From a bacterium (GTDB taxonomy: Bacteria > Zhuqueibacterota > Zhuqueibacteria > Residuimicrobiales > Krinioviventaceae), in the NCBI GenBank assembly GCA_963693055.1, contig OY843751.1:4352001-4416000 (forward strand): a DNA stretch of 64,000 nucleotides, written 5' to 3'. This document shows positions 39,935 through 61,185 of the stretch, piece by piece (position 1 is the stretch's first letter; each line of letters starts with the position of its first letter). The notes under the pieces are model-generated. The model worked only from the letters and a program-made list of their open reading frames with translations. It was not told where the DNA came from and did no database searches. A program made the translations under genes and the position numbers.

Positions 39935-41122
39935 TTAGATAAATTGCAGCCGGGTTTCTTTTAAGTGCTTTTCTTCCAACAGCTTGCGTATTTGTTTAAT
40001 AATATTACGGCGGATCTCAAGTTCAACCGGTACATTGGGATCCTGATGCGCGTCATTGATCTTGGTTCCTACCACAAAATGTATTATGTCGCTATTTAAA
40101 AACAAGTCTACCAATCGTGTAGCACCATTGGGCTTTACAGGATTCGGATGCAGGTCCTTTTCAAGCAATTCAGTCACTTTAGCCATGGTAATTGTACCCT
40201 CGGTCACAAGATCAACACCCTGCATCTCTGATATGGGTGGTACATCCGGTGAAATATCTTTCAAGTTCACCCTAACATCACGACCCAGCTCACGCGCAAG
40301 AATCTTGGTAGTGGTACCACCACAAATCACTTTTTTCCCTCTAAATGAATCCATAATTTCTGCAAGTTCTTTGTCTTTTTTCGGATCAATAGGCGGTCCG
40401 GTCATTACCAATAACTCTCGCGGTTCACGAACATGGATAACACCACAGGTTATATCATCGGAGGCTTTGTATTGATCATTCGCATATGCTTTTTGCACAA
40501 TCCGGTTTGCAAGATCACGCGCTGAAATTTCCATATCCTGTTCAAACAAACCACCAATAAACTCCTGAACTGCATTTTCACCCCATCCTAATGGATACGG
40601 CCGTGTACCCATTCCAGACTGGGTTACTCCATCGGAGAATAATATAATGCAGTCACCCATCTCTGCCTGAAAATTGGAAAAATGCAAAAAATCCTTTTTA
40701 TGTTCACGCTCACCCAACTCTATGGTTGATTTTGATACCGGAAAAATCTTATTATTGCGCACAAGAATAAAAGACGGATTGTCATATTCCACTATACGGG
40801 TTTGCATACCTTCATCAATATCCACAATAGAAAATGTGGAATAGCTAATCTTGCGGGTTTTACATACCGGTAGGGTTTTCATAATAACCTGCGCGGTCTT
40901 TTCAATATCGAATCGATTAGAAATATAATTCAACGCCATTGTGGTTGTCAGTGTAGATAATACATTGGCCTTTATACCACTACCAAGCCCGTCGGATAAA
41001 ACAGATATAGTTCTCCGCTCTTCTTTGTACTTGCGGGACATGAACGTATCGCCGCCAACAATTTGATTTTCTTTGAACTTTTGATAATAGTCCACTTCTA
41101 TAAAAGGTCTTTTAGCCGGCAT
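39935..41122 (-). CDS. SpoIIE/PP2C-family Ser/Thr phosphatase (HfsC-like)
   Basis: GGD, LSDGLGSG, FSDGV, DDIT. Confidence 0.9.
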   Translation of the reverse strand: MPAKRPFIEVDYYQKFKENQIVGGDTFMSRKYKEERRTISVLSDGLGSGIKANVLSTLTTTMALNYISNRFDIEKTAQVIMKTLPVCKTRKISYSTFSIVDIDEGMQTRIVEYDNPSFILVRNNKIFPVSKSTIELGEREHKKDFLHFSNFQAEMGDCIILFSDGVTQSGMGTRPYPLGWGENAVQEFIGGLFEQDMEISARDLANRIVQKAYANDQYKASDDITCGVIHVREPRELLVMTGPPIDPKKDKELAEIMDSFRGKKVICGGTTTKILARELGRDVRVNLKDISPDVPPISEMQGVDLVTEGTITMAKVTELLEKDLHPNPVKPNGATRLVDLFLNSDIIHFVVGTKINDAHQDPNVPVELEIRRNIIKQIRKLLEEKHLKETRLQFI

Positions 41123-42845
41123 TTTCATCTCTTCGAATTGTCGTGTTTGAATAAGAACCAATTATAGAATCAAGTATCACTTCTGTTTCTGATGCGTTTT
41201 CACCCAACAGATAGGCAATCTTTTGTACGGTTGCCAAATTATTTTCAATAACCTGACGGGCCCGGTTTATAATCTGTTCTTTTTGTATAGCCGGTTCTGT
41301 TACATCCTGAAAAATACCGCCAATGATACGATTCGGTTCTATACTGAACAAGGTCAAATTGAATATTGAATTCTCATGCCGTATATCAAGATTTAGCTTT
41401 TCAATACCATCATCCAAAACATTTTTAAAATAATGGGTAAAAGGAATAATCTTTTCAAGACTTGCACCTTCAAGGCCGGGTTTGGCATCATATATATCTT
41501 CAACATCTTTGCCCAATAATCGTGCAAAGTTTTGGTTACATTCTACAATCCTTAAATCTTTGTCAACAATAACAACACCAGAGGGCATAGAGCTCAATAA
41601 CGCGTTTGCCTTTTTATGCGCCAGTTTACGCATATATGAAACACACATGCCTAGTTCGGCCTTACCATCCAGCATGGCAATTGCAAAATCCCGGCAGGTA
41701 TCGTATCCGCAGCCACCACAATTCAACTCGTCTTTTTCCTTAATTTTACCAACTGTCAGCAAGGCATCACGAATTAAAAACTCGTCATACTTTTCCTGCA
41801 CCTTGCCGCTAATGTTTTGGGGATTATGAATATTCAAACTGGGTCTTTTGGGAATATCTGCAACAGAATACTCTGCATTCTGCAAAACTTCATATCGTTT
41901 GGTGATAATTGATTTTTTTTCCGTTATTTGTGGACCGTTCACGCACCCACCTTCACAAGCCAACATTTCAACAAACACACTCTTTTCTAGTTTCATGGAT
42001 TTCAGATCGGTTAATGCATCTCTCAGATTATCCAATCCCGAGAATGCCATAAAACATGCATCTGCTTGTGCACAGTTTGCTTTAATTCCTGCCAGCATTC
42101 CACCATCAACAGGATACAGGCTGCCCTCTTTAGCAGCTTCTGGAATAAAATGATCTTCTGCTGTGGGTTCAAGATCGCTCAGAATAATTTCTTCTTTCTC
42201 AAACCAGGTTTTCAAATTTTCAAAACTGATGGCAACATCCAACAGTTCATTAAAAGTATCGGATTCGAATTTTTTAGAAATACAAGGTCCCGCAAATACA
42301 ACAGCAATATCATTGCCATAATTTTCTTTTAATAAAGTAGCATGGGCCAGTAATGGAGAATGCAGTTCCGTTACATTATCTGCAAATTCAGGATAATATT
42401 TTTTCACAAGCTGAACAACAGTAGGGCATGCAGATGAAAACATTAAACGGGGTTTACTCTTTTCAATAATATCTGCCACATGCGCAGATACTTCCTGAGC
42501 GCCTAACGCAGTTTCAGACACGCCAAAGAATCCTAATTTTTTGAGGCCATGTATCAACCTGGCCGAGCCCACATTATTAAACTCGTTAATAAAAGATGGT
42601 GCCAGAGACAGAATAACTTTATCTTTCATGCTAAGCAGTCGCTTAACCCGGCCAACATCATCTCTAACCCGCTTTGCCCCAACCGGACATACTTGCACAC
42701 ACTTGCCGCATAAAACACACAACTCTTGAATGACAGAAGCGCTGCCATTCTCCACCTGAATCGCTTTATTCGAGCAGGCACGCACGCATTTATAACAATC
42801 CTGACACTCGGCCTGTTCTGTATATATAGGGAAATAAGGATTCAT
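41112..42845 (-). CDS. putative sensory [FeFe]-hydrogenase with Fe-S and PAS domains (HfsB/HydS-like, group C)
   Basis: Variant P1 SSACP, GPCISKK.E, EMLACEGGC.NG, LNCGGCGY..C, C-terminal PAS. Confidence 0.9.
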   Translation of the reverse strand: MNPYFPIYTEQAECQDCYKCVRACSNKAIQVENGSASVIQELCVLCGKCVQVCPVGAKRVRDDVGRVKRLLSMKDKVILSLAPSFINEFNNVGSARLIHGLKKLGFFGVSETALGAQEVSAHVADIIEKSKPRLMFSSACPTVVQLVKKYYPEFADNVTELHSPLLAHATLLKENYGNDIAVVFAGPCISKKFESDTFNELLDVAISFENLKTWFEKEEIILSDLEPTAEDHFIPEAAKEGSLYPVDGGMLAGIKANCAQADACFMAFSGLDNLRDALTDLKSMKLEKSVFVEMLACEGGCVNGPQITEKKSIITKRYEVLQNAEYSVADIPKRPSLNIHNPQNISGKVQEKYDEFLIRDALLTVGKIKEKDELNCGGCGYDTCRDFAIAMLDGKAELGMCVSYMRKLAHKKANALLSSMPSGVVIVDKDLRIVECNQNFARLLGKDVEDIYDAKPGLEGASLEKIIPFTHYFKNVLDDGIEKLNLDIRHENSIFNLTLFSIEPNRIIGGIFQDVTEPAIQKEQIINRARQVIENNLATVQKIAYLLGENASETEVILDSIIGSYSNTTIRRDENAG

Positions 42846-42849
42846 ATTG

Positions 42850-43104
42850 TCAATCTCTAAAATAATAATTTAATATATCAATAACAGAATTGGGATCCAC
42901 TTGTGTATATTGGTCTTTATTGATTGTAATATTGGGTCCCGATGTGCACTGGCCTTCACATAAACAGCCGCACAATTCTACATTGGCTTCTATCTGATTT
43001 TCCTGCATATAATGCTGAATAATCTCCAAACTGCGCTTGTTACCTCTGGAATAGCAAGAGCTTCCCATACAAATTCTAATTTCAGTAATATTATCTCTAC
43101 TCAT
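42850..43104 (-). CDS. NuoE-like 2Fe-2S protein (HfsA-like)
   Basis: ICMGSSC...CLCEGQC..GP. Confidence 0.87.
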   Translation of the reverse strand: MSRDNITEIRICMGSSCYSRGNKRSLEIIQHYMQENQIEANVELCGCLCEGQCTSGPNITINKDQYTQVDPNSVIDILNYYFRD

Positions 43105-43105
43105 T

Positions 43106-43747
43106 TTATCCTCTTTGCGGCCCTTCCGCATTGGCGTTAGAAAAAACGTAAAAGATTACGGTTTCCAACTCCATTTCCAAATCCACGTGATTTATATAAA
43201 TATCATCCGGTGCTCTTAATGAGATGGGAGAAAAGTTCATAACGCCTTTAATACCCGCTTTTACCAGCAAATCAAGCGTTTCCTGAGCTGCCAGCGCAGG
43301 CACAGCAAGGATTGCCAGCTTTATCTGGTTTTCACGTATAAATGACTCCATTTCGTCTACTGAATATATCGGCACAGTTGCCTCAGAATTCAGTTTATTA
43401 TCATCTGCATCAAAAGCAGCGACGATTTTGATATTTTCTTTTTCAAAACCGGTATAGTTTAACAAAGCGTTGCCAATATTGCCATTCCCTACCAAAATCA
43501 CCGGTTGCACTTTGTCTTTGCACAGCAATGTTTCAATTTCAGCCAAAAGCTCATCTATCTGGTATCCTCCTTTTTTATTGCCGGATATACCAAAAACCGA
43601 AAAGTCTTTGCGTACCTGCGCAGGATTCACACCCGCCGCATCGGCAAGATTATCAGAGAACACCTTGACTACCCCTACGGACTTTAGTCTTTTCAGGGCA
43701 CTTTTGTAACGTGACAATCGGGTCACACTGTTCTTAAATGCATACAT
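43106..43747 (-). CDS. rex: redox-sensing transcriptional repressor Rex
   Basis: RLSRY, QVRKDFS.FG..G..GGY, VG.GNIG.AL, NFSP. Confidence 0.95.
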   Translation of the reverse strand: MYAFKNSVTRLSRYKSALKRLKSVGVVKVFSDNLADAAGVNPAQVRKDFSVFGISGNKKGGYQIDELLAEIETLLCKDKVQPVILVGNGNIGNALLNYTGFEKENIKIVAAFDADDNKLNSEATVPIYSVDEMESFIRENQIKLAILAVPALAAQETLDLLVKAGIKGVMNFSPISLRAPDDIYINHVDLEMELETVIFYVFSNANAEGPQRG

Positions 43748-43796
43748 TTTCCGCCTCCAACAATTAACGGAACAAATTACATAATAAATTTCTTAT

Positions 43797-43830
43797 TGTC
43801 AAGTTTTATGTGAAAAAAATCACATAAAAC
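43797..43830 (-). promoter_or_regulatory. Rex-box-like palindrome abutting a TTGACA -35 element upstream of rex-hfs
   Basis: gttttatgtga-aaaaaa-tcacataaaac (43803-43830) resembles TTGTGAA-N4-TTCACAA; minus-strand TTGACA at 43802-43797. Confidence 0.75.
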
Positions 43831-43975
43831 TGCAAAATATTATTTCCCGGTTAATGGTAAAGTAATGTATAAGATTTGACTTGATTTTAATGTGAAAATT
43901 TAAATTCGAGATTGCTATTTTAGGAGAGTATAACTGATATCCCAAATGGAATATCAGCAGTTCAGTACAATCAAT

Positions 43976-44266
43976 TCATTCTTGATTCAAATTGTTAATT
44001 TCTTTAGCCAGTTCCATATCTTTATCTGTTACTCCCCCTTCACTATGTGTGCTTAACGTAATGGTAACCTGGTTCCAGTTGTGCAGCAAAATATCAGGAT
44101 GATGGTCTTTTTCCTCAGCCAACTCGCCAATTTTGTTCACAAATGCCAACGCTGTTTTAAAATTCTCGAGATTAAATGCTTTGGTGATAAAAGAATCATG
44201 AAATTCCCAACCGGACATTTCTTTCATGGCTTGTAATATCTGTTCATCTGACAGTAGCATTTTCAT
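43976..44266 (-). CDS. phhB: pterin-4-alpha-carbinolamine dehydratase
   Basis: AEEKDHHPDI, LSTHSEGGVT.KD. Confidence 0.92.
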   Translation of the reverse strand: MKMLLSDEQILQAMKEMSGWEFHDSFITKAFNLENFKTALAFVNKIGELAEEKDHHPDILLHNWNQVTITLSTHSEGGVTDKDMELAKEINNLNQE

Positions 44267-44417
44267 TAAACTCCTTTACTTAAAATAACACAATCCACCT
44301 TTTATCCATTCCGACTGCCTGAAACAATTCCGTATCCACTGATCAGAGAATAAAAGCATAAATCCGATTTTTCTTGATTTTCAGTTCGTGTATCCGTATT
44401 ATTAACATTGGACACAC

Positions 44418-45005
44418 TTGCAGGAAATCGTGAATACGCAAAAGACTAAACATATTCAGGGCATTGGCCCTATTCAATTTGTACGCAGTTCAAGGGCCAA
44501 ACGGGTCAACATCTCTATTCGTCCCGACCAGGGTATACGTGTAGCCGTACCTCGCGGTATTTCATTCCAACGCGCCGAGCAACTGATTGAATCCAAATAC
44601 GATTGGATAAAAAGTCACCAGGAAAAACTCAAAGCCGCAGAAAAATTTCATGACAACTTGCAACAGCAAACCCCTGCCAGCACCATGAGTGTTAGAGAAG
44701 CTAAACTGTTAATTGCAAACCGGTTGAACAAGCTCTCAGAAAGATATGGTTTTTCTTATAACCGCTTGTTTATCAGGAACCAGAAAACACGTTGGGGCAG
44801 TTGTTCATCGGTTAATAATATCAACCTGAACATCAAGATTACCAAACTGCCTCCTGAACTTATGGATTATGTTATTCTGCACGAACTGGTCCATACGCGC
44901 ATTAAAAACCACAGTAAAAACTTTTGGAACGAGCTCGATTATTACGTAGGAAATGCCAAAGCGGTTGATAAGGAACTAAAGAAATTCAAACTAGAATATT
45001 TATGA
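44418..45005 (+). CDS. YgjP/DUF45 family metal-dependent hydrolase
   Basis: R.QKTRWGSCS, DYVILHELVH, NHS..FW. Confidence 0.9.
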   Translation: MQEIVNTQKTKHIQGIGPIQFVRSSRAKRVNISIRPDQGIRVAVPRGISFQRAEQLIESKYDWIKSHQEKLKAAEKFHDNLQQQTPASTMSVREAKLLIANRLNKLSERYGFSYNRLFIRNQKTRWGSCSSVNNINLNIKITKLPPELMDYVILHELVHTRIKNHSKNFWNELDYYVGNAKAVDKELKKFKLEYL

Positions 45006-45012
45006 GTTAAAA

Positions 45013-46263
45013 ATGAATGATAAAAAAACAATAAACTCGGATCTAATTCCAGACAGACAAAAACTTGAAGATGCTTACAATGAAAACCTCGCTCTGTTTG
45101 AGATCGAACTGCGCAGGCTAACCCGAAAACTTAAAAAAAACCTTTCAGAGCACCAGACCAATGCAACAATAAAATCGCGAATCAAATCCTTTGACAGCTT
45201 TTTTGACAAGTTGTTAAATACCATACAAAATACCGGTACGAATGACATTGTTCTTACAGATATTATTGGAATTCGTATCATTACACCTTTTCTTGAAGAT
45301 CGCGATGGTGTAATCAAACTCTTGACCAATGAATTTAATGTTACCGAAATAGAAGCCAAAGGAGAAAAGCACTCTTTTAACGAGTTTGGCTATGACTCCA
45401 CCCATCTCCTGGCGGATTTGCCCGAGGGTTACCCCGCCATAAAAATGCCATATACCAAACCGGTATTTGAGATCCAGCTGCGTACCATTCTGCAGGAAGC
45501 CTGGGCAGAAGTGGAACATGAATTGATCTATAAGGCCAATTTCTCTCTATTAAACACCTCTATCCGTCGTAAACTGGCTTCGCTCAATGCAAGTCTTGCG
45601 CTTTCAGATGTTATCTTTCAGGAAATTCGCGACTATCAAAAAGAGATCCAAAATCTTGATGACAAGCGGCGCGAAATGCTTTTAAACAAGGTCAAAGAAA
45701 TCGATAAAATGCCGTTAATCGACAAAATTGCACCCAAGCAGGATCTTGAAGCGAATCTAAAAAAAGATATCAATTCCATTCAACCACAAAAAGAACTGGA
45801 TAAACTGATTTTTGAAGCACTGGATGCTCATAGCAACCAGCACTATTCTCAGGCAATTCAAATCTATTCTGAAATATTGAACCGGGAACTGGAGCCCAAA
45901 ATATCTTCAATTATTTTTAACCATCGGGGAATGGCGTATTTTGTACAATCCGAGTATGAAAGATCTATAGATGATTTCACCAATGCATTATATTTCAATC
46001 CCGAAAATTACAGGGCTTTGAACAACAGAGGCCTGGTTTACAAAATGGAATCGCAGCACGACAAGGCGCTGGCAGACTTTGAAGCTTCCATAGAGATTTT
46101 TCAAAACCAGGTAGACGGCTACTATGGATGCTCTCTCATCCATTACGATCTCGAAAATTATTCAAGCGCCATCACCTATTGCAACAAGGCGTTGAATATT
46201 AAACCAGATTTTTCACCAGCAAAACAATTAAAAAGCATCATTGCGTCTAAACTGTTTAGATAA
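45013..46263 (+). CDS. RelA/SpoT-type alarmone synthetase domain fused to TPR repeats
   Basis: RIKS..S...K, DIIGIRI, GY.S.H, EIQLRT..QEAWAEVEH..IYK; C-terminal TPRs. Confidence 0.9.
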   Translation: MNDKKTINSDLIPDRQKLEDAYNENLALFEIELRRLTRKLKKNLSEHQTNATIKSRIKSFDSFFDKLLNTIQNTGTNDIVLTDIIGIRIITPFLEDRDGVIKLLTNEFNVTEIEAKGEKHSFNEFGYDSTHLLADLPEGYPAIKMPYTKPVFEIQLRTILQEAWAEVEHELIYKANFSLLNTSIRRKLASLNASLALSDVIFQEIRDYQKEIQNLDDKRREMLLNKVKEIDKMPLIDKIAPKQDLEANLKKDINSIQPQKELDKLIFEALDAHSNQHYSQAIQIYSEILNRELEPKISSIIFNHRGMAYFVQSEYERSIDDFTNALYFNPENYRALNNRGLVYKMESQHDKALADFEASIEIFQNQVDGYYGCSLIHYDLENYSSAITYCNKALNIKPDFSPAKQLKSIIASKLFR

Positions 46264-46343
46264 TTAAAAACAATTTGAAACTTTTTGCACGTTTCTCCGT
46301 ATGTTATTTGTTGGAAAATTAATCATTAAAAATGGAGTGAAAC

Positions 46344-48377
46344 GTGAAAAAAGTATTCATGCTTCTTACACTTTTCAGCTTTATCCTGGTAGCAGGATGT
46401 ACACAATCCCCTCAGACCACAAAAGCAATTGATCCCCAAAACATGGATCTAACCGTAAAACCGGGCGACGATTTTTATCAATACGCCAACGGTAACTGGA
46501 TCAAAAACCATCCCATTCCGGATGAATACAGCCGTTACGGCGCTTTTGAGTACCTGATTGAAGAAAACTACATCAAGGTTAAGGATGTTCTTACCAGTGC
46601 TGCAGCAAATAAAGATGCGGCAGAGGGCAGCCTTGAACAAAAGATTGGTGATTTTTACAGCACAGCAATGGACACAGTCGCCATTGAAAAAGCAGGGATT
46701 TCACCATTAAAAGCAGATCTTGAGCGCATTCAGGCAATCAAAACCCCGCAGGATATTATCAAACAAATGGCCTACATGCAAACACACCAAATGTATGCAC
46801 CCTTTGTAACCGCAGCATTTCAGGATGCCAAAAACACCGAAATGGTCATCATCCAAATAATGCAGGGTGGTCTGGGTCTCCCTGACCGGGATTATTACAC
46901 AGAAAAAGACGGTCGCTCACAAGAGATCCGCAAAGAATATCTCATTCATTTGAAAAAAATGTTCATCCTTGCAGGTGATGATGAAGCAGCAGCGCAAAAA
47001 GCCGCAGATGATGTAATGGCCTTTGAAACCCGACTGGCAGAAGCATCTATGAAGCTCATCGATCGTCGAGATCCCAACAAAACGTATAACAAAATGGACC
47101 TTGAACAGCTCAAAAAATATACCGGAAAATTTGACTGGGACCTCTATTTTGATTCTATTGATATGAACAATCCGGGTGGCATGAACATTCGCCAGACCGG
47201 TTTTATCAAAGAGATGGCCAAAATGGTTTACGATACCCCGGTAGACAACTGGAAGACCTATTTCCGCTGGCACCTGCTTGATCAAAATTCTGGTTACCTG
47301 AGTGATGACTTTGTAAACCAAAATTTTGATTTCTTTGGCCGCGTGCTTTCAGGCACCAAAGCCCTGCAGCCCCGCTGGAAACGTATGCTGCAAACTACAA
47401 GTGGCGAAATGGGCGAAGCGGTGGGGCAATTGTATGTTCAAAAATACTTTCCACCCGAAGCAAAATCCCGCATGGTTGAACTGGTGGAAAATTTAAAATA
47501 TGCTCTGGGTGAACGTATTAAAACCCTGGATTGGATGAGCGACGAAACCAAAGTCAAGGCCCTGGCAAAACTGGACAAAATGGGTTATAAAATCGGGTAT
47601 CCCGATAAATGGACCGATTACAGTACATTAGAAATCAAAGATGACTCATTCTTTGCAAACACCATGCGTACCCGTCACTTTAATTTCCAATACGAAATGA
47701 ACAAGGCCGGTAAACCGGTTGACCGTACCGAATGGCACATGTCTCCGCAAACCGTAAATGCCTACTATTCACCTACCATGAACGAAGTAGTGTTCCCTGC
47801 GGCAATTTTGCAGCCGCCTTTCTTTGACATGGCAGCAGACGATGCGGTTAACTATGGTGCAATCGGTTTGGTGATTGGTCATGAGATGACCCACGGATTT
47901 GACGACAAGGGCCGCCAATACGATCTGAACGGTAACATCAATGACTGGTGGACTGAAAAAGATGGTGAACGTTTTAAAGAACGCTCACAGATCCTGGTTG
48001 ATCAGTTCAACAACATGACCGTTTTTGATTCTTTGCATGTGGATGGCAAACTCACCCTGGGTGAAAACATTGCTGATCTGGGTGGATTAAATGTATCTTA
48101 TACCGCATATCTCAAATCCCTTGAAGGTAAAGAAACTCCGGCACCTATTGATGGATTAACCGACAAGCAGCGTTTCTTTATTGGTTACGCGCAGCTCTGG
48201 CGCCAAACCATCCGCGATAAAGAACTGATGCGTCGATTAAAAGAAGATGTACACTCTCCCGGCAATTTTAGAGTAAATGGTCCCTTGACCAACATGCCCG
48301 AATTTTATGCCGCCTTTGATGTACAACCCGGCAACCCCATGTACCGCAAAGCAGAAGATCGAGCAAAGATCTGGTAA
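46344..48377 (+). CDS. M13 family metalloendopeptidase lipoprotein (PepO/neprilysin-like)
   Basis: Lipobox VAGC; PGDDFY.YANG.W, VNAYY, HEMTHGFD, GENIADLGG. Confidence 0.96.
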   Translation: MKKVFMLLTLFSFILVAGCTQSPQTTKAIDPQNMDLTVKPGDDFYQYANGNWIKNHPIPDEYSRYGAFEYLIEENYIKVKDVLTSAAANKDAAEGSLEQKIGDFYSTAMDTVAIEKAGISPLKADLERIQAIKTPQDIIKQMAYMQTHQMYAPFVTAAFQDAKNTEMVIIQIMQGGLGLPDRDYYTEKDGRSQEIRKEYLIHLKKMFILAGDDEAAAQKAADDVMAFETRLAEASMKLIDRRDPNKTYNKMDLEQLKKYTGKFDWDLYFDSIDMNNPGGMNIRQTGFIKEMAKMVYDTPVDNWKTYFRWHLLDQNSGYLSDDFVNQNFDFFGRVLSGTKALQPRWKRMLQTTSGEMGEAVGQLYVQKYFPPEAKSRMVELVENLKYALGERIKTLDWMSDETKVKALAKLDKMGYKIGYPDKWTDYSTLEIKDDSFFANTMRTRHFNFQYEMNKAGKPVDRTEWHMSPQTVNAYYSPTMNEVVFPAAILQPPFFDMAADDAVNYGAIGLVIGHEMTHGFDDKGRQYDLNGNINDWWTEKDGERFKERSQILVDQFNNMTVFDSLHVDGKLTLGENIADLGGLNVSYTAYLKSLEGKETPAPIDGLTDKQRFFIGYAQLWRQTIRDKELMRRLKEDVHSPGNFRVNGPLTNMPEFYAAFDVQPGNPMYRKAEDRAKIW

Positions 48378-48399
48378 GCTTTTTCAAGTAATCTTAAAT

Positions 48400-48443
48400 A
48401 AAAACCCCGCTTCCTGATAATATCAAGAATCGGGGTTTTTTAT
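48400..48443 (+). terminator. intrinsic terminator after the M13 peptidase
   Basis: aaaaccccg...cggggttttt hairpin followed by a T tract. Confidence 0.7.
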
Positions 48444-48487
48444 TTACAGAAGACAAATTCACATGGAAAGATAAAAAAATCCCAGAA

Positions 48488-48534
48488 CGGTCCCTGAGTG
48501 TCCCGAACTTGCTTCGGGACGTATCGAAGGGCCG
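48488..48534 (+). repeat. REP-like palindromic element, copy 2
   Basis: cggtccctgagtg-tcccgaa cttgc ttcgggac-gtatcgaagggccg. Confidence 0.65.
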
Positions 48535-48552
48535 GCATTCTAAATTTATCCT

Positions 48553-48577
48553 GGTTCCAAGGCTCTGCCTTGGAACC
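48553..48577. repeat. perfect 11-bp-stem hairpin, second REP-like type
   Basis: ggttccaaggc-tct-gccttggaacc. Confidence 0.55.
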
Positions 48578-49240
48578 CAACTTGATCGCGATGCAGATCC
48601 CTGCATCGCAGATCATCCATCCGGGACACTCGTCCCGTAACATTAAATTCTGAATCTCCTACAATATTCTGCTTACAAGATCAGAAAAGTCCTGCATAAT
48701 ATTTCACTCGGCATAAATATGCCGGGCGATCAGATTTTAAGGAGCGGGGTTTTGTTTTTTTAAATTAACAAATCACAAAAAATACGGATAAAACGAATTT
48801 GCGCGTATAAAATATGTACCTTCTGCGTCCAAAACTCCTGTTTTGTGACGCAACTAACACGCGAAACTCTGTTTCGCAATAATAAATTATCCCACACCTC
48901 AGAAAAAAAATTAGAGACTCAAAAAGTGAGTGTAATAATTCTGTGTATCTTATTACTAAACACATTTTATATTATTTTCTTGCATGTTTTTACAAAAATA
49001 TATTAATTATACTATACAAATTAAAACTGACATGGGGAATTCTGGGTGGAAATGGATACTAATTCATTACATTAAAATTCTTAATATGTTTGAAATTCTA
49101 GTGTTATTTACTATATCAGGGATACGCTAAAACCCCCAAAACTAGGATTTTTGTATCTGTTTTAAATCAAGCCTTGTGCTCCGTTTCTACGCTTCGAGTT
49201 TAACAAGTGTAAGCCCCAAATATGACTATGGAGTATTTAT

Positions 49241-51124
49241 ATGACAAATGAAGAAATTGCAAGATTTTTCAGTGAAACTGAAGTTAATCTTACAGAGAAC
49301 ACCAGATTACGTGAACCACAAATTGAAGGATATCAAGCTGTAAGAGATTTCTTTTCTAATGGAATGAGTGGACATGCAATACTCCAAATACCCGTTGGTT
49401 GTGGAAAAACAGGATTAATGAGCATTTTACCGTTTGGCTTAGCCAATGGCCGGATTCTCGTAATAACACCCAATATAGAGATAAGAAATGGTGTAACTGA
49501 TGCCTTAGATTTTAATAATAGCAGTTGCTTCTGGCGAAATGTTGATTTTTTACAAAACTTCCAAAATGGGCCATTCAGAACTGTGTTAGATAGCAGAGAC
49601 GCGAATTTACATGATTGTAACAACGCTCATTTCGTAGTTACAAATATTCATCAATTAGCAAGCTCCGCAGAAAGATGGTTACCACAATTCCCAGACAACT
49701 ATTTCGATTTAATCCTTGTAGATGAAGGTCATCATAATGTTGCAAATAGTTGGCAAAGAGTATTTGATAAATTTCCAGATGCAAAAATTGTTAGTCTTAC
49801 TGCTACACCTTTTAGGTCAGATGGTCAGATAATTAATGGGCAAAATATATATAGATATGCCTTCTCTAGAGCAATGAGAAGAGGATATATAAAACAATTA
49901 ACTTCAATTAATGCAGCTCCTTCCGAAATTTACTTTACTTATCAAGGCAATGAGCACCATCATACCCTGCAAGAAGTACTAGCTCTCCGCGAAGAAGCTT
50001 GGTTCAGAAATGGGGTTGCGCTTTCCAGAGAAACTAACATTAGCATTGTTGATGCAAGCATTCAGTGTCTACAACGGATTAGACAAACTGGTTTCAACCA
50101 CCAAATTGTTGCTGCCTGTTGCTCTATTAACCATGCACGTGAAGTTGCTTCTCTTTATAGAGAACGTGGTTTTAATGCATCACATATTTCAAGTCATATG
50201 AAAAGAGAAGAACGAGACGAGGTCATTAATAATTTACGATCAAACAGAATAGACGTAATAGTTCAAGTTCAAATATTGGGCGAAGGATTCGATCACCCTC
50301 CACTTAGTGTTGCGGCTATATTCCGTCCATTTAGAAACTTATCACCTTATGTTCAGTTTGTTGGTAGGGTCATGAGGGTTGTTCAACAGAATTCACCATA
50401 TCATCCAGACAATGAAGGAATTGTAGTATCACACATTGGGCTTCAACAAGATGAAAGATGGAATGATTTCAAACTTTTTGACAATGATGACCAGATTCTA
50501 TTTGCAGAATTACTTAATAGTGAAGAAACTGAATTAACTAATATAACTAATCCAGAAACAGAAAATAGAAATAGAGAAAGACGAAGAATTCGCCCCAATA
50601 TGACTGTAATTGATGAAGTAATTGACAGTTTCATAACTGATGATTTTCTCGATTTAAATGATCAGGGGGCAATAGATGAAGCAATTCATCAGATTGGTCA
50701 ATTATTAGGTGTTTCCGCAGAAGATCTAGGTTTAACTCGTGAAGAATTAATTGGAAGGCTTTTAGCTGCAAGGCAGAGAGCTGAATTGAAACCTCAACAA
50801 ATACCTGTTCAACCACAAGAAGCAAGAAAAGAAAGAAGACGAAGACTTAACGAAGAAACTCGCTCTGTAGCTGGTAGAATCATTCAAGCCCTTAATCTTG
50901 CACCTCAAGCTCCAAATTTAGTTCCATTGTTCCCTCAATTTGCCTCAAGAAATAATATTGGTGTAATAATTAGATTAATGCACCATTATGTTAATGAAAG
51001 AATGGGATTTGAATCTGGAATTAAGGGTGAACTATCGATTGACCAATTAGATGCTGCTATTAATATTCTTGATGATATTGGTGATCAAGTTCAGGAAGAA
51101 ATATTTACTCGTTTGAATAGGTAA
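49241..51124 (+). CDS. superfamily 2 DExH helicase (ResIII-like) with a helical C-terminal extension
   Basis: LREPQ, PVGCGKT, VDEGHH, LTATP.R.D, LGEGFD, YVQFVGRVMR. Confidence 0.92.
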   Translation: MTNEEIARFFSETEVNLTENTRLREPQIEGYQAVRDFFSNGMSGHAILQIPVGCGKTGLMSILPFGLANGRILVITPNIEIRNGVTDALDFNNSSCFWRNVDFLQNFQNGPFRTVLDSRDANLHDCNNAHFVVTNIHQLASSAERWLPQFPDNYFDLILVDEGHHNVANSWQRVFDKFPDAKIVSLTATPFRSDGQIINGQNIYRYAFSRAMRRGYIKQLTSINAAPSEIYFTYQGNEHHHTLQEVLALREEAWFRNGVALSRETNISIVDASIQCLQRIRQTGFNHQIVAACCSINHAREVASLYRERGFNASHISSHMKREERDEVINNLRSNRIDVIVQVQILGEGFDHPPLSVAAIFRPFRNLSPYVQFVGRVMRVVQQNSPYHPDNEGIVVSHIGLQQDERWNDFKLFDNDDQILFAELLNSEETELTNITNPETENRNRERRRIRPNMTVIDEVIDSFITDDFLDLNDQGAIDEAIHQIGQLLGVSAEDLGLTREELIGRLLAARQRAELKPQQIPVQPQEARKERRRRLNEETRSVAGRIIQALNLAPQAPNLVPLFPQFASRNNIGVIIRLMHHYVNERMGFESGIKGELSIDQLDAAINILDDIGDQVQEEIFTRLNR

Positions 51125-51128
51125 TAAA

Positions 51129-51347
51129 ATGTCAGCGATTAAACAAATTATTTCAACATGCTATTTCGAGTCTGCAAAAAGATTAAGACATTGTTCTAGA
51201 AACAAAAAGCATCTTATATCAAAAAATGAAAAGTGTTTTGTTGTAAAAGAGCAAATGAATAAAAAGAGCTATTGCATGGAGTGTGCATTAATTATTCTTA
51301 ATAAAGCTAAACAAGATATTAATGAGTTATACGATCAATGTGATTAG
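51129..51347 (+). CDS. small Cys/His (putative Zn-binding) protein coupled to the helicase
   Basis: 72 aa, starts 4 nt after the helicase stop; C.....H ... C ... YC..CA. Confidence 0.7.
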   Translation: MSAIKQIISTCYFESAKRLRHCSRNKKHLISKNEKCFVVKEQMNKKSYCMECALIILNKAKQDINELYDQCD

Positions 51348-51491
51348 AAGCAATTGTTAAAAATTAGTTATATATCAAACAATAGCCTAATCCAACACAA
51401 CCCCATCAGTGAAAATCCGTGTCAATCCGTGGCTAAATCAATCTTTTCCAAACAATAGGCGATGTCCAAAATATACTACTCTTGAAAAACA

Positions 51492-51544
51492 CCGGTGCTT
51501 CGATACGCTCGTCCGCTTTTAGCGGACTCGCACTCAGCAACCGG
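51492..51544 (-). repeat. REP-like palindromic element, copy 3
   Basis: Minus strand ccggttgctgagtg-cgagtccgct aaa agcggacgagc-gtatcgaagcaccgg. Confidence 0.65.
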
Positions 51545-51578
51545 CTCTTCATTTTTTTAATAATTATAAAACCGGTCC

Positions 51579-52994
<1,416 letters not shown>

Positions 52995-53126
52995 ATATAA
53001 ACTCCTTTTTTAATCATATATCTTCTTTTTAAAAATAAACATAAATCCAAAAAAAGCAATACAATAAAACAAAAAATCATGGTGATGGAATTTATGCTCT
53101 ATTCAAATTCCATATATCAAATTTTG

Positions 53127-54371
53127 TTACAGGAACAAAATCCTGCAAATAAAAAGCGCTGCCAAAACGCCCACCACATCCGCAATTAAACCTGCTGCTA
53201 CGGCAAAGCGGGTATTTTTTATATTCACCGCGCCAAAATAGACCGCAATAACATAAAATGTGGTTTCCGTACAGCCGTACAGAGTAGAGCCCAGTTTACC
53301 AATGAACGAATCCGGACCATGGGTTTGCATCAACTCGGTAACCAGTCCCAGCGTTCCGCTGCCGGACAATGGCCGCATCAGCGCAGCAGGCAAAATCTCT
53401 GCAGGCATTCCAATTAAATCCGTTAACGGAGCAAGCATCTTTACCAGTACACTCATCGCACCTGATGCCCGAAACATCCCTACAGCTACAAGTATCGCCA
53501 CCAGATATGGAATAATGCGCACCGCAACCTGGAACCCTTCTTTGGCGCCCTCAATAAACAATTCATAAATGGGAAGCTTTTTAAATATTGCAACAAAGGG
53601 GATCAGTAACAGCAACACCGGTATCACCCAATAAGAAAAAGATGTTATGCCATGCTTAAAGGCCTCAGAGTTCATGATAAACAAAAGCGCCCTGCCAATG
53701 CCGGTAAAATAAATGACTGCCCCAAAACCTGCCAGAACAGCTGCAGCAATAACATAATTCTTTAAAGCACCTATTCCCTTGCCGCTTCCCAGGTGGATGA
53801 ACAGCTTGACTACAAAAATCACTGCAAGTGTAGCCATTAATGATGAAAATATAGTCGTAAATATAATATCAACCGGATTAACGGAATCCAACCCAACCCG
53901 TACACCAATCATAGTCATGGGAATCAATGTGATACTGGCAGTATTGAGCCCCAACAGCATGATCTGCGCATTGGTAGCTGTATCTTTTATCGGATTCAAT
54001 GTCTGCAATTCTTCCATTGCTTTTATGCCGAATGGTGTGGCCGCGTTTCCCAGACCTAGCCAATTCGCGGAAAGATTCAACGTAACCGCGCCAATTGCCG
54101 GATGATCTTGCGGAACATCCGGAAAGAGGAATTTTGCAACAGGCCGAACAAGCCGTGCCAAAAAGCGAATGAATCCCGCTTCTTCAGCGATCTTCATCAT
54201 CCCCAGCCACAGGGTCATAATACCAATCAAATTAAAAGCAATGCCCACAGATGTTTCTGCACTGCTAAGCACCGTGTCTGTCAAAAGTTTCATATTGTGG
54301 GTAAATCCCGCAACTATAACCGCAACCGCAATCAATAAAAGCCAGATATAATTAAGCAAAGTGTTCTCCAT
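53127..54371 (-). CDS. fused SpmA/SpmB (nucleoside recognition gate) membrane protein
   Basis: LGLGNAATPFGIKAMEELQ, MRPLSGSG, ETTFYV.AVYFG. Confidence 0.92.
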   Translation of the reverse strand: MENTLLNYIWLLLIAVAVIVAGFTHNMKLLTDTVLSSAETSVGIAFNLIGIMTLWLGMMKIAEEAGFIRFLARLVRPVAKFLFPDVPQDHPAIGAVTLNLSANWLGLGNAATPFGIKAMEELQTLNPIKDTATNAQIMLLGLNTASITLIPMTMIGVRVGLDSVNPVDIIFTTIFSSLMATLAVIFVVKLFIHLGSGKGIGALKNYVIAAAVLAGFGAVIYFTGIGRALLFIMNSEAFKHGITSFSYWVIPVLLLLIPFVAIFKKLPIYELFIEGAKEGFQVAVRIIPYLVAILVAVGMFRASGAMSVLVKMLAPLTDLIGMPAEILPAALMRPLSGSGTLGLVTELMQTHGPDSFIGKLGSTLYGCTETTFYVIAVYFGAVNIKNTRFAVAAGLIADVVGVLAALFICRILFL

Positions 54372-54495
54372 AATTAATATTTATCCCTATTATAAAAATT
54401 TTTCACAACAAATAAAAATACTTGTTTCCTAATCGTATAGTTTGTAAATTTATTTGATAAAATTACTAAAGCCAATTTAATATGGAGGAAGAAAC

Positions 54496-54684
54496 ATGAA
54501 GGCTGTAGTTGATCCGGATCTCTGCACAGGTTGCGAATTGTGTGTAGATACATGTCCAGAAGTTTTCGAAATGGATGACGATGTAGCAAAAGTTATTGTT
54601 GACCAGGTTCCTGCTGATTCAGAAGATGGTGCACAAGAAGCTGCTGAATCTTGTCCTGCAGAAGCTATTGCTATTGAAGACTAG
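54496..54684 (+). CDS. monocluster ferredoxin
   Basis: CTGCELC...CP, CPAEAI; GGAGG RBS. Confidence 0.93.
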   Translation: MKAVVDPDLCTGCELCVDTCPEVFEMDDDVAKVIVDQVPADSEDGAQEAAESCPAEAIAIED

Positions 54685-54714
54685 TAGCACTTTTTATCTT
54701 AATACAAATGTTAT

Positions 54715-54742
54715 GGCTGGCGCTTTGCCAGCCTTTTTTTTT
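54715..54742 (+). terminator. intrinsic terminator
   Basis: ggctggc-gcttt-gccagcc followed by a T run. Confidence 0.8.
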
Positions 54743-54790
54743 ATAGGTATGCCGATATTGAAACTAAACGCAATCGGATTCCTAAAATCA

Positions 54791-54847
54791 TTGACAATTA
54801 ATCCAGTAATTATTATATTCGTGAATAAATTTGAACCGGTTTAAATT
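54791..54847 (+). promoter_or_regulatory. sigma70 promoter with a LacI-type operator
   Basis: TTGACA (54791), 17-bp spacer, TATATT (54814); near-perfect palindrome aatttgaaccggtttaaatt (54828-54847) with central CG. Confidence 0.75.
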
Positions 54848-54866
54848 CAATATATTGGAGGTTAAT

Positions 54867-55856
54867 ATGCATTTCAAGTCTGTCAAGTGGCTTGTAGTAT
54901 TTACAATTTTTATATCTTTACTTTTTATGGGTTGTGGCGGCAGCGGTAAAAAAGTAGTAACTTTGAAAATAGCGCACGGTCTGAACGAACAACACCCGGT
55001 ACACAAAGGTATGGCGTTTATGGCCCAAAAAATCTTTGAACTTTCAGACTCTACCATGGTTATGAAAATTTTCCCCAACGAACAATTGGGTAATGAAAAA
55101 GAATGTATTGAGCAGCTCCAAATCGGTAGTCTGGATATGACCAAAGTATCAAGCAGCGCGCTTGAAAGTTTTGTTCCTGAAATGGGTGTATACGCAATGC
55201 CGTTTCTGTTCCGTGATGAAGCCCACAAATGGGCAGTATTTAACGGACCCATCGGACGCGAACTGTTAGACTCTGGCGAAAGCTCTGGCCTTAAAGGTCT
55301 GGTTTATTACGATGCCGGTGCACGTAGTTTTTACACCACCAAAGCACCTATCCTGAAACCCGAAGACCTCCAGGGTCTCAAAATCCGTACACAGCAGAGC
55401 CCAATGGCTATCAAAATGATCCAGGCTCTGGGTGGTTCAGCTACCCCCATCTCATGGGGCGAGCTCTATACTTCATTACAGCAGGGTGTTGTAGACGGTG
55501 CTGAAAACAATGCGCCCAGTTTGTATACCGCAAACCATTACGAAATTGCTAAACATTACAGTCTGGATGAACATACAGCAGTACCCGATGTTGTTCTTAT
55601 CAGCACCATCACATGGAACAAACTTACTCCCGAACAACAGCAGATTGTACAAAAAGCAGCCGAACTATCTGTTGATTACCAACGTAAAGTTTGGAAAGAA
55701 TTTGTTGATTCTTGCCTGAAAGAAATGGAAGAAAAAGGCCTAAAAGTTTACCATCCTGAAAAAGGCCCCTTTATAGAAAAAGGTAAAGAACTTTGGAAAG
55801 AGTTTGACGGCACCAAAATTGGTGATTTAACCAGCAGAATTCTTGAGGTACAATAA
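54867..55856 (+). CDS. dctP: TRAP transporter solute-binding lipoprotein (DctP family, sugar acids)
   Basis: Lipobox FMGC; DL.GLKIR, E.YTSLQQGVVDGAEN; GGAGG RBS. Confidence 0.94.
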   Translation: MHFKSVKWLVVFTIFISLLFMGCGGSGKKVVTLKIAHGLNEQHPVHKGMAFMAQKIFELSDSTMVMKIFPNEQLGNEKECIEQLQIGSLDMTKVSSSALESFVPEMGVYAMPFLFRDEAHKWAVFNGPIGRELLDSGESSGLKGLVYYDAGARSFYTTKAPILKPEDLQGLKIRTQQSPMAIKMIQALGGSATPISWGELYTSLQQGVVDGAENNAPSLYTANHYEIAKHYSLDEHTAVPDVVLISTITWNKLTPEQQQIVQKAAELSVDYQRKVWKEFVDSCLKEMEEKGLKVYHPEKGPFIEKGKELWKEFDGTKIGDLTSRILEVQ

Positions 55857-56344
55857 TGCTCTTAAAATTTAAATCAGGTCTAGATAAATCTTTAGAATAT
55901 TTAACAGCAGCGTCGATGGCCATTCTGGTCATCGATGTTACCTGGCAGGTTATTACCCGTTTCATCATGAAAAATCCCAGTTCATGGACTGAAGAACTGG
56001 CAATTTATTTGATGATCTGGGTAGGACTTTTGGGCTCTGCTGTAGCGCTGCATCGTCATGCGCACCTGGGTATTGATTACTTTGTTGGCAAACTTGAGCC
56101 CAAAAAAAGACTTTATACAGAAATTTTTGTATATGCGGTTGTTACATTTTTTGCAGTAACGGTTCTATGTATAGGAGGCGTTAAGCTGGTTTCCCTCACA
56201 CTTATGAAAAACCAGATCTCCCCCGCTTTGGGAATTCAGGTAGGCTATGTATATCTGGCGGTTCCAATTGCCGGATTCTTTATTACTATATATTGCATAG
56301 AATTTTTACTCAATACTTTTAAAACGATAAAAAGCATCAACTGA
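55856..56344 (+). CDS. dctQ: TRAP small permease
   Basis: QV.TRF, WTEELA, H.GID; four TM helices. Confidence 0.92.
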   Translation: MLLKFKSGLDKSLEYLTAASMAILVIDVTWQVITRFIMKNPSSWTEELAIYLMIWVGLLGSAVALHRHAHLGIDYFVGKLEPKKRLYTEIFVYAVVTFFAVTVLCIGGVKLVSLTLMKNQISPALGIQVGYVYLAVPIAGFFITIYCIEFLLNTFKTIKSIN

Positions 56345-59687: not shown

Positions 59688-59730
59688 TATTAAATTTAAC
59701 ATAAAAGTGATAGAGAAGGAGATTTACAAT

Positions 59731-61185
59731 ATGAGCAAATGTGATATCGGCCTGATTGGTTTGGCCGTTATGGGCGAAAACTTGATTTTAAATATGGAAA
59801 GCCATGGCTATTCAGTTGCAGTTTTCAACCGTACAACTAAAAAAGTTGATGATTTTATGAACGGTCGCGCCAAAGATAAAAACATCGTTGGCTGTTACAG
59901 TATTGAAGAACTGGTTTCTAACCTGAAAGCTCCTCGACGTGTTATGTTGATGGTTAAAGCCGGTAAACCGGTTGATGATTTTATTGAAATGATCATCCCC
60001 CATTTAGACAAAGGTGATATCATTATCGATGGTGGTAACAGTCATTTCCCGGACACCATTCGTCGCACCCAGTACCTCGAAGAAAAAGGCCTGCAATATA
60101 TCGGTACCGGTGTTTCCGGTGGCGAAGAAGGCGCCCTCAAAGGTCCTTCAATCATGCCCGGTGGTTCACCAGACGCATGGCCGCATGTTAAAGATATTTT
60201 CCAGGATATTTCTGCCAAAGCTATGGGTGGCGAACCTTGCTGTCAATGGGTTGGCAGCGATGGTGCAGGTCACTTTGTAAAAATGGTACACAACGGTATT
60301 GAATATGGTGACATGCAGATGATCTGTGAAGCCTACTCTTTAATGAAAAATGTTCTTGGTTTATCATATGAAGAAATGCACAAAATCTTTGATGAATGGA
60401 ACAAAGGCGAACTGGATAGCTATCTCATCGAAATTACCCGTGATATTATGGCTAAAAAAGATGAAGAAACCGGCAAAGCCATGCCAGAAGTTATTCTTGA
60501 CACTGCTGGCCAAAAAGGTACCGGAAAATGGACCAGTATTGCAGCATTGGATATAGGTATTCCCGCGCAGACTGTAGCCGAAGCTGTATTCGCACGTACC
60601 ATGAGCGCAATCAAAGAAGAACGCGTTGCCGCATCTAAAGAACTCAAAGGACCGGATGTTAAATTTGACGGCAACAAGGAAGAATTTATTGAAATGATTC
60701 GTAAAGCATTGTACGCTTCCAAGATCTGTTCCTACGCTCAGGGATATCAATTGATTAGAGCTGCAGCAGCTGAATACAACTGGGACCTGAAATATGGTGA
60801 AATCGCTCTGATGTGGCGTGAAGGTTGTATCATCCGCGCGCAATTCCTCGGAAAAATCAAAGAAGCTTTTGACAATAACCCTGAATTAGCAAACTTGCTG
60901 CTTGATCCGTACTTTAAAGGTATCATTGAAGATAATCAGAAAGCATGGAGAGCTGTTATTTCCAAAGCTGTTGAAATGGGTATTCCTGTACCTGCTTTCA
61001 GTAGCGCGTTATCTTATTTTGACGGTTACCGCAGTGACAGATTACCCGCTAATTTACTGCAGGCACAACGCGATTATTTTGGCGCTCACACCTACGAACG
61101 TGTTGATAAACCTCGCGGCGAATATTTCCATACAAACTGGACAGGCCGTGGAGGCAGCACATCAGCTTCTACTTATGTAGCCTAG
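59731..61185 (+). CDS. gnd: 6-phosphogluconate dehydrogenase (decarboxylating), paralog 2
   Basis: [39 protein letters not shown]. Confidence 0.96.

Follow-up and report, generated by a model that had tools for sequence, protein, structure and literature searches.

PsyrTA, in which a RecQ-like helicase toxin is paired with a DprA-like antitoxin, is a precedent for a bacterial helicase that serves as a toxin. Type III Druantia has a partner protein that both processes forked DNA and brings in the helicase (10.64898/2026.05.13.724313). The E. coli superfamily 2 (SF2) repair ATPase RadD (YejH) has zinc-binding regions (PMC9049331) and depends on its partner RecA for its action, having no nuclease of its own (PMC8887467). 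PARP fingers bind DNA breaks independently of sequence, gripping the backbone through Arg and stacking on exposed bases (PMC8150716). We describe here a two-gene unit that bears comparison with each of these systems. It is located in a 64,000-nucleotide stretch (the window) of the genome of a Zhuqueibacterota bacterium (GenBank assembly GCA_963693055.1, contig OY843751.1, positions 4,352,001 to 4,416,000). The unit is made up of a gene for a 627-residue SF2 helicase or translocase (49241–51124, + strand) and a gene for a 72-residue partner with a predicted PARP-like zinc-finger fold (51129–51347, + strand), with 4 nt between the helicase stop codon (51124) and the partner ATG. Both open reading frames (ORFs) were found where a sequence-only reading of the window had placed them.

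The pair is a real, conserved and mobile unit, and it has no name in the libraries and papers that we searched. We infer its function from its neighbourhood: because the two genes travel together across phyla and are often found among anti-virus genes, a defensive role is likely. Our preferred reading, to which we assign a probability of roughly 0.55, is that the pair is a mobile module defending against phages or other invading DNA, in which the finger senses and the helicase dismantles.

Linkage, spread and surroundings of the pair

The partner gene lies directly downstream of the helicase gene in 153 of the 158 loci in which this could be tested, which bears out the conserved pairing on which the sequence-only reading depended. 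These 158 come from 168 loci, 10 of which are ended by contig ends and were left out; three weak helicase matches (L169–L171) are left out of all counts. In the remaining five loci the partner is upstream and divergent in one, a broken stub in two, and replaced by a different small protein in two. The divergent partner (L123:518–745) is 82 bp from its helicase, an arrangement that may reflect an inversion or an assembly effect. The two replacements (L167:9856–10182 and L168:9914–10222, on contigs from a viral collection) are downstream proteins of 102–108 residues assigned to phrog_12848, with no zinc ligands, and constitute a sister module with a swapped partner.

Recovering the partner family needs alignments: a single-sequence search returned only itself, and a first scan of GTDB found none. 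Within the helicase loci a single partner sequence used as query already found 135 short ORFs at E < 0.001, so the linkage is not dependent on the partner profile built later. Among 351 Thermodesulfobacteriota genomes, all 7 helicases (2 of which are seeds) adjoin a partner, and an eighth partner match is a deletion remnant of the pair; among 351 sampled genomes of another family the partner occurs in the seed genome only. It likewise adjoins the helicase in all 6 plasmid loci, even where helicase identity falls to 33%, and one of these partners is unannotated in two records. Across the homologue loci the two genes overlap or nearly touch, and helicase and partner distances correlate (rho 0.70), a correlation that co-transfer alone would give. 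One protein, P0158, contains the last 75 positions of the helicase and the partner in a single frame; this one record is short at its N terminus and possibly an artefact.

The partner profile matches 623 clusters at 50% identity. Among 7996 proteins scored, 3794 are helicase relatives at E ≤ 0.001, the top 120 of which reach an identity of at least 50%, nearly all full length. Helicase matches are present in at least 442 stretches of GTDB, 52 plasmid records and 8 IMG/VR contigs, and in none of 50,697 phage genome records at E ≤ 1e-20. In a tree of 71 helicases the phyla are intermixed, Thermodesulfobacteriota, Planctomycetota and Zixibacteria sharing near-identical copies (bins may contain stray contigs). 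The helicase and its partner form a near-obligate, horizontally moving two-gene cassette found across many bacterial phyla.

The N-terminal end of the helicase varies. Of 64 complete GTDB copies, 37 have a MerR/Xis-like helix-turn-helix (HTH) domain, 4 have an extension that reads as tetratricopeptide repeat (TPR)-like, and 23 are bare, like the window copy. The HTH-fused copies mostly stand alone (34 of 37). Of the 23 bare copies, 13 sit immediately behind a gene on the same strand, which in many cases ends a type I restriction-modification (RM) or BREX operon. The latter arrangement would suit a pair that assists other defence systems (RM, BREX, Hma), freeing stalled translocases or mending self-inflicted cuts, and that is not protective alone. 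Such a helper role fits less well with the stand-alone HTH-fused, window and plasmid copies, or with the lack of a fixed third partner: the neighbours vary, and the commonest neighbour family, which we read as a serine recombinase, is found at 14 of 162 loci. We regard a pure helper as the least probable of the explanations considered here. Two further layouts were seen. In L052 (7102–7662), L057, L060 and L160 a TPR-like helical extension of the helicase accompanies a conserved gene for 180–190 residues that overlaps the helicase start and has no PADLOC or PHROG match, and in L051 (2751–4373) and L055 a gene for an HTH-Ser/Thr kinase lies directly upstream of the helicase.

On mobilisable enterobacterial plasmids of 5.9–6.2 kb, the pair is the sole cargo besides rep, mob and a RelE-type pair. 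It overlaps the end of rep (L236:914–2918, NZ_CP039506; L238:4176–6176). A role in plasmid replication was rejected: 13 plasmids contain the pair, compared with 101 in which the 5.9-kb plasmid's rep gene is largely present, so most plasmids with that rep lack it. The plasmid version of the pair matched no E. coli genome by blastn. Optional cargo of this type, composed of a large enzyme and a tiny coupled gene that overlap or nearly touch, could equally be a toxin-antitoxin-like addiction or abortive-infection module, in which the helicase would harm host DNA or drain ATP and the small protein would restrain it. The mostly stand-alone HTH fusions are consistent with such a module, as is the dispensability of the zinc ligands in one clade (see below), which is expected if protein contact matters most. 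Yet one lineage (L033, L126 and L128) retains an intact helicase with a broken partner, the 5.9-kb plasmids already have a RelE-type toxin-antitoxin pair, and the in-frame fusion P0158 suits a subunit better than a labile antitoxin. On balance, we consider an addiction module unlikely.

The defence reading draws on the neighbouring genes. These were scanned at the 50 GTDB loci flanked by 4 kb or more in both directions (30 of 80 loci with less flank or no helicase ORF called were left out), taking the two nearest ORFs of at least 130 residues per side and PADLOC matches at E ≤ 1e-10. As a control, the same rule was applied to uvrB in 40 of the 50 genomes, leaving out 9 with uvrB near a contig start and 1 partial match; the ORFs were called by a simple rule, and some are spurious in both sets. 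Around the pair 57 of 200 neighbours, at 36 of 50 loci, have a PADLOC match, compared with 10 of 158, at 9 of 40 loci, around uvrB. In the 40 matched genomes a match lies near the pair in 30 and near uvrB in 9. Once generic or partial matches (kinase, ABC, Lon, sigma-54, HTH, relaxase) are dropped by eye, the figures become 29 of 50 (24 of 40 matched) versus 2 of 40. Fisher p values for the enrichment range from 5e-6 to 5e-8 and exaggerate the significance, since certain loci are related to each other (L015/L017, L020/L026, L003/L072). The systems represented among the neighbours of the homologues include type I, II and III RM, BREX, Hachiman, Gabija, Lamassu, Azaca, PsyrTA, Hma, pAgo and AbiE. 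In one control genome a DRT8-type reverse transcriptase gene (L227:8203–9735) directly adjoins uvrB.

The two proteins and a proposed mechanism

The helicase contains ResIII (residues 22–192) and Helicase_C (275–380) regions, corresponding to two RecA-like domains, and is assigned to SF2 by the Q motif (Q27), Walker A (GCGKT, 53–57), DExH (DEGHH, 161–165), motif III (TATP, 187–190) and motif VI (GRVMR, 375–379). All five positions are intact, in agreement with the complete motif set read earlier, and the four that we tested among homologues are intact in 154–157 of 157 full-length proteins. The motor is elaborated by an inserted hairpin (219–242), a conserved acidic segment (398–418), a disordered linker (415–444) and a family-specific helical tail (454–627); there is no N-terminal HTH. 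The acidic, Arg-rich helical tail of about 200 residues described previously corresponds to residues 425–627, with 16.7% Asp plus Glu, 10.8% Arg and an isoelectric point of 5.0. This region is modelled as one strand plus helices and is Cys-free, the helicase having no Cys beyond residue 294. Outside the motor, H398, G400, D417, E459, P525 and Q526 are invariant in 71 of 71 homologues, and R529, R535 and a basic residue at 595 are nearly so.

The helicase model has a predicted local distance difference test score (pLDDT) of 81 and a predicted template modelling score of 0.79. Its closest solved fold is RadD (Z 20.8, root-mean-square deviation (rmsd) 3.7, 330 aligned), followed by FANCM, XPB and HsdR; Foldseek aligns RadD with residues 15–424 (E 1.3e-16), and a further RadD match has E 3.7e-21. 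Beyond the motor, no Pfam, NCBIfam, PADLOC or PDB sequence match was found, to a nuclease domain (PD-(D/E)xK, PLD or HNH) or otherwise, the tail not having been fold-searched alone. Against PDB sequences the tail gives nothing below E 0.37, and the fold search barely covers it past residue 430. No longer protein (1099–3135 residues) carrying the tail was found, which is weak evidence, and the ESM Atlas, queried with one helicase homologue, returned generic DEAD/DEAH clusters only.

The resemblance to RadD raises the possibility that the pair is a mobile accessory of DNA repair or recombination, processing breaks or branched DNA in a RadD-like manner for the element or its host, and is not a defence system. 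RadD too has zinc-binding regions and acts with RecA and no nuclease of its own (PMC9049331, PMC8887467), and PARP-type fingers serve repair in eukaryotes. Genes for tRNA or tmRNA are present at 10 of 50 pair loci and 2 of 40 controls (which are shorter), as with integrated elements. These points have to be set against a RadD family (NF053632) score of 71.8 bits, where the cut-off is 720, and a very patchy occurrence (7 of 351 and 1 of 167 genomes). Moreover, most loci have defence neighbours rather than SOS or repair genes, and the plasmid replicon does not need the pair. A repair accessory is the best placed of the alternatives to defence, and still an outside chance.

The partner is basic (isoelectric point 9.1) and consists of a finger followed by an amphipathic helix (50–71); its model (pLDDT 92) shows a strand, a knuckle, a hairpin and a long helix. 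The likely zinc ligands, to judge from conservation, are C22, H28, C49 and C52, kept in 150, 141, 145 and 138 of 150 representatives. The finger-like character noted in the sequence-only reading holds for these four residues but not for the Cys of its 'KC' motif, Cys36, which is present in 103 of 150 representatives; His21 is also less conserved than the likely ligands. The partner is under purifying selection, with a ratio of nonsynonymous to synonymous polymorphism of 0.14 and 0.11 in two clades by a rough count. An alphaproteobacterial clade (L012, L015, L017, L019–L028 and others) has replaced C49 with Ser and C52 with Ala while retaining purifying selection.

PARP-1 fingers come top in both fold searches with the partner: Zn2 and Zn1 in VIA (Z 5.6 and 5.1; best rmsd 3.1, 58 aligned), and again in Foldseek (probability 0.98, E 0.47). 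The partner profile was compared by hhalign with 13 bacterial zf-PARP domains drawn from 7 of 151 myxobacterial genomes, yielding a probability of 89.7, a score of 33.9 and an E value of 1.8e-6 (one comparison) over 46 columns. All four ligand positions are in register, with ligand types differing at two. Column shuffling gave a maximum score of 16.3 in 100 trials, and of 21.8 in 100 trials with the ligand columns fixed. Arg20, in the matching loop, is kept in 140 of 150 representatives. We conclude that the partner, whose PARP-like fold is a model prediction, is probably a remote homologue of zf-PARP, though not a member of the Pfam family. It matches none of 5027 PADLOC models, and a viral fold search gave weak matches only, to small uncharacterised proteins and three PARP-type entries. 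The myxobacterial proteins themselves (L242–L254) have 180–250 residues and are built of tandem zf-PARP domains.

In the mechanism that we propose, the finger would locate ends, nicks or forks in phage or plasmid DNA undergoing replication, its amphipathic helix would dock on the helicase tail, and the ATP-driven helicase would be loaded or switched on. Translocation could then dismantle replication or recombination intermediates in a nuclease-free manner, stalling the invader or the cell. The HTH of most stand-alone helicases may autoregulate the operon, a feature that the window copy lacks. We infer each of DNA-break sensing, protein-protein contact, helicase activation and the defence role. 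More tentatively, and with some doubt, the pair could exemplify nuclease-free immunity in which a stand-alone relative of the nick-sensing finger of PARP-1 and ligase III recognises invading DNA that is broken or forked and then activates an SF2 motor. This would be a prokaryotic use, and possible source, of a eukaryotic break sensor, with swappable inputs (HTH, TPR-like extension, kinase). If the defence reading is true, the pair is a compact (2.1 kb) and widespread helicase defence module without a visible nuclease, and its effector step would therefore be mechanical or cryptic; a bacterial immune sensor would also be tied to a PARP-type finger known from eukaryotic break repair. As a repair helper or addiction module only, it would be of moderate interest.

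A number of observations weigh against reading the pair as a defence module with a PARP-like sensor. The window copy lies between genes for an M13 peptidase and gnd with no adjoining defence gene, and 14 of 50 homologue loci have no PADLOC match. The uvrB control is a core-genome site, and the enrichment shows island residence, which is common to any mobile cargo. The general traits of defence systems (patchy, mobile, enriched near known defence genes) are those of the family and not of the window copy, and the defence module proposed from the sequence is upheld for the homologues, enriched as they are near defence genes relative to uvrB, but for the window copy it is read from the neighbourhood of its relatives. 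No effector domain was found in the pair, whereas Hachiman, Druantia and Hna couple the helicase to a nuclease. The distant helicases of L167 and L168 (30–36%) have a different small partner. For the finger itself, the fold searches gave weak matches (E > 0.001, Z < 8) in the common small-fold range, with RING and C1 domains within 1 Z unit, and PF00645 (zf-PARP) matches 0 of 85 partners at E ≤ 0.1. The conserved Arg aligns one column away from that of zf-PARP, and the hairpin expected to hold the base-stacking loop is short and variable. Among 71 paired partners the ligand set is C-H-C-C in 43 and C-C-C-C or C-C-C-H in 5, C49 is lost in 17, and 6 have other sets; the 'zinc sensor' of the sequence-only reading thus has its putative ligands in most partners but is not universal.

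The insertion and its flanks

The pair occupies a genome-specific 3.0-kb segment with 35% GC (48579–51577). At this site the same-genus genome G001 has about 45 bp, plus an unrelated transposase within the neighbouring palindrome. The two genomes are 90–91% identical on both sides (window 42000–48566 and 51578–56000), and G001 has the repeat families described below and nothing of the helicase or partner genes. Searches of 40 relatives and of all 166 other phylum genomes turned up no helicase either (105 of the full set of 167 are at 90% completeness or more), so the idea of a broadly syntenic housekeeping gene finds no support in the phylum. The helicase and partner genes have GC contents of 36.0% and 27.4%, compared with 44.5% for the M13 peptidase gene, 49.2% for gnd and 39.4% for the genome, in line with the AT-richness recognised earlier. 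GC at third codon positions in the helicase gene is 21%, which places it in the bottom 2.2% among 872 long ORFs from the genome's first 2 Mb. Because the helicase is rare in the phylum and its base composition atypical, gain of the segment is favoured over loss; two genomes do not prove direction. The G001 transposase gene (L193:8790–10390), which has inverted ends and which we take to be IS1182-like, sits inside the palindrome adjoining the empty site. This intergenic spot has thus taken two different insertions.

The flanking genes encode the M13 peptidase (46344–48377, + strand) and gnd (51579–52994, − strand), names that were taken from translations and not from a family scan; as the sequence-only reading had it, neither neighbour is a methyltransferase. 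The long non-coding leader that it also described is an 863-bp gap between the peptidase stop and the helicase ATG, in which neither the HTH of the family nor any Rfam entry is matched. The part nearest the helicase (48880–49240, + strand) is AT-rich (28.5% GC) and likely the promoter region, with GGAG at 49230–49233, 7 nt ahead of the ATG. Promoter sites in the leader are not above chance (15 found, 12.2 expected), and a hidden RNA or promoter there was rejected, nothing exceeding chance.

A terminator-like hairpin with A/T tails (48400–48440), 3' of the peptidase gene, is common to G001 and outside the insertion. It is followed by two palindromes (48492–48579; at 7 and 16 genome places) resembling repetitive extragenic palindromic (REP) elements, which G001 also has; the insertion begins where the second ends. 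Three further REP-like repeats (48580–48879; 25, 10 and 5 places) lie inside the left end of the insertion and two (51404–51545; 10 and 12 places) inside its right end. Each of the seven repeats, five left and two right, recurs at 5–25 genomic places, and none is found once the genome is shuffled. REP-like elements are therefore present on both sides, as first described, but they are intergenic repeats of a general kind that enclose ordinary genes elsewhere as well, so that REP-driven mobility of the cassette is not supported; the sole Y1 transposase found has an internal stop. The genome contains at least 7 families of short palindromic repeats in mosaic clusters (for example 147496–150060, 1410791–1412918 and 4201702–4201943 of the contig), some of which enclose single low-GC genes with signal-peptide-like starts, resembling gene cassettes.

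Elsewhere in the window there are two divergent gnd paralogues (53% identity; 51579–52994 and 59707–61185), 6.7 kb apart and in the same layout in G001. Judging from translations, a RelA/SpoT-like synthetase domain fused to TPR repeats is encoded just upstream of the M13 peptidase (45013–46263), and lookalikes of a SpoIIE-like phosphatase, an FeS/PAS hydrogenase-like sensor, a small 2Fe-2S protein and the Rex repressor are encoded at 39935–43747.

Comparison with known systems

No model in PADLOC (2.0, 2023), NCBIfam (June 2026) or Pfam spans the whole helicase or the whole partner. PADLOC matches to the helicase are limited to the generic motor core (best E 1.9e-17, residues 141–381), giving no full-length match to a named system, and the 72-residue protein matches no named-system model, so the partners of known helicase systems do differ from this one as was claimed. 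A full-text literature search turned up no description of the pair, and six RefSeq accessions of plasmid homologues included in it gave 0 papers; subscription papers and bioRxiv supplements, outside its scope, may list the family as a predicted defence gene. In the excerpted text of the DefensePredictor preprint, supplement aside, 'helicase' occurs 0 times and no such system is found. The word is likewise used 0 times in the corresponding excerpts of Darracq et al., again without the supplement, where Toutatis is a methyltransferase pair. The passages of PMC10250203 (Shango) contain no such pair. According to excerpts of its main text, the discovery screen of Mordret et al. (10.1101/2025.01.08.631966) set aside helicase-containing candidates, which may explain why such a pair was passed over; no such system appears in those excerpts, the supplement being outside their scope.

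Of the described proteins, RadD is the nearest to the helicase. Both have a ResIII plus Helicase_C core with no recognised nuclease, and both go with a zinc-binding element, a putative one in the case of the pair. They differ in that identity is about 20%, the NF053632 score given above does not reach family membership, and RadD is a core gene whereas the window helicase is rare and mobile. In addition, the zinc regions of RadD are in the same chain (PMC9049331), while here the finger is a separate gene of another fold and the helicase tail is Cys-free. The partner in turn shares with PARP-type fingers (PF00645; PARP-1 Zn1/Zn2, DNA ligase III, myxobacterial zf-PARP proteins) the same predicted topology and the pattern E-x-A...R..C...I-x-K-G-E...aromatic-[C/H]-x-x-C, with the four ligand positions aligned. 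Its putative ligands are C-H-C-C (C-C-C-C in a side clade) rather than C-C-H-C, its hairpin is short, its C-terminal amphipathic helix is long, and it is a single stand-alone finger tied to a helicase and below Pfam detection.

Among defence systems, Hachiman, Druantia, DISARM, Dpd, Pbe, Shango, Hna and SauUSI-type type IV restriction have an SF2 motor and island residence in common with the pair, in which no nuclease, PLD, DUF1998 or methyltransferase was found. It is not Hachiman: HamB is not among the PADLOC matches, HamA (DUF1837) is absent at the window locus, and separate Hachiman systems adjoin the pair in L012, L025 and L070. For DISARM, Dpd, Pbe, Shango and BREX there is no full-length match to DrmA/DrmD, DpdF, PbeA, SngC or BrxH; the matches are to the motor core only (best PbeA, E 4e-16), and the companions are absent. 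Type I, type III and ISP RM are excluded by the M13 peptidase and gnd neighbours and by the lack of a constant third gene in 162 loci. PsyrTA is, like the pair, a two-gene helicase module without a recognised restriction nuclease; its PsyrT matches residues 294–382 only (E 8e-8), the partner here is a 72-residue finger and not DprA, and a separate PsyrTA adjoins the pair in L012. As far as sequence can place it, the pair belongs to none of the systems tested, yet it resembles a helicase defence system licensed by its partner.

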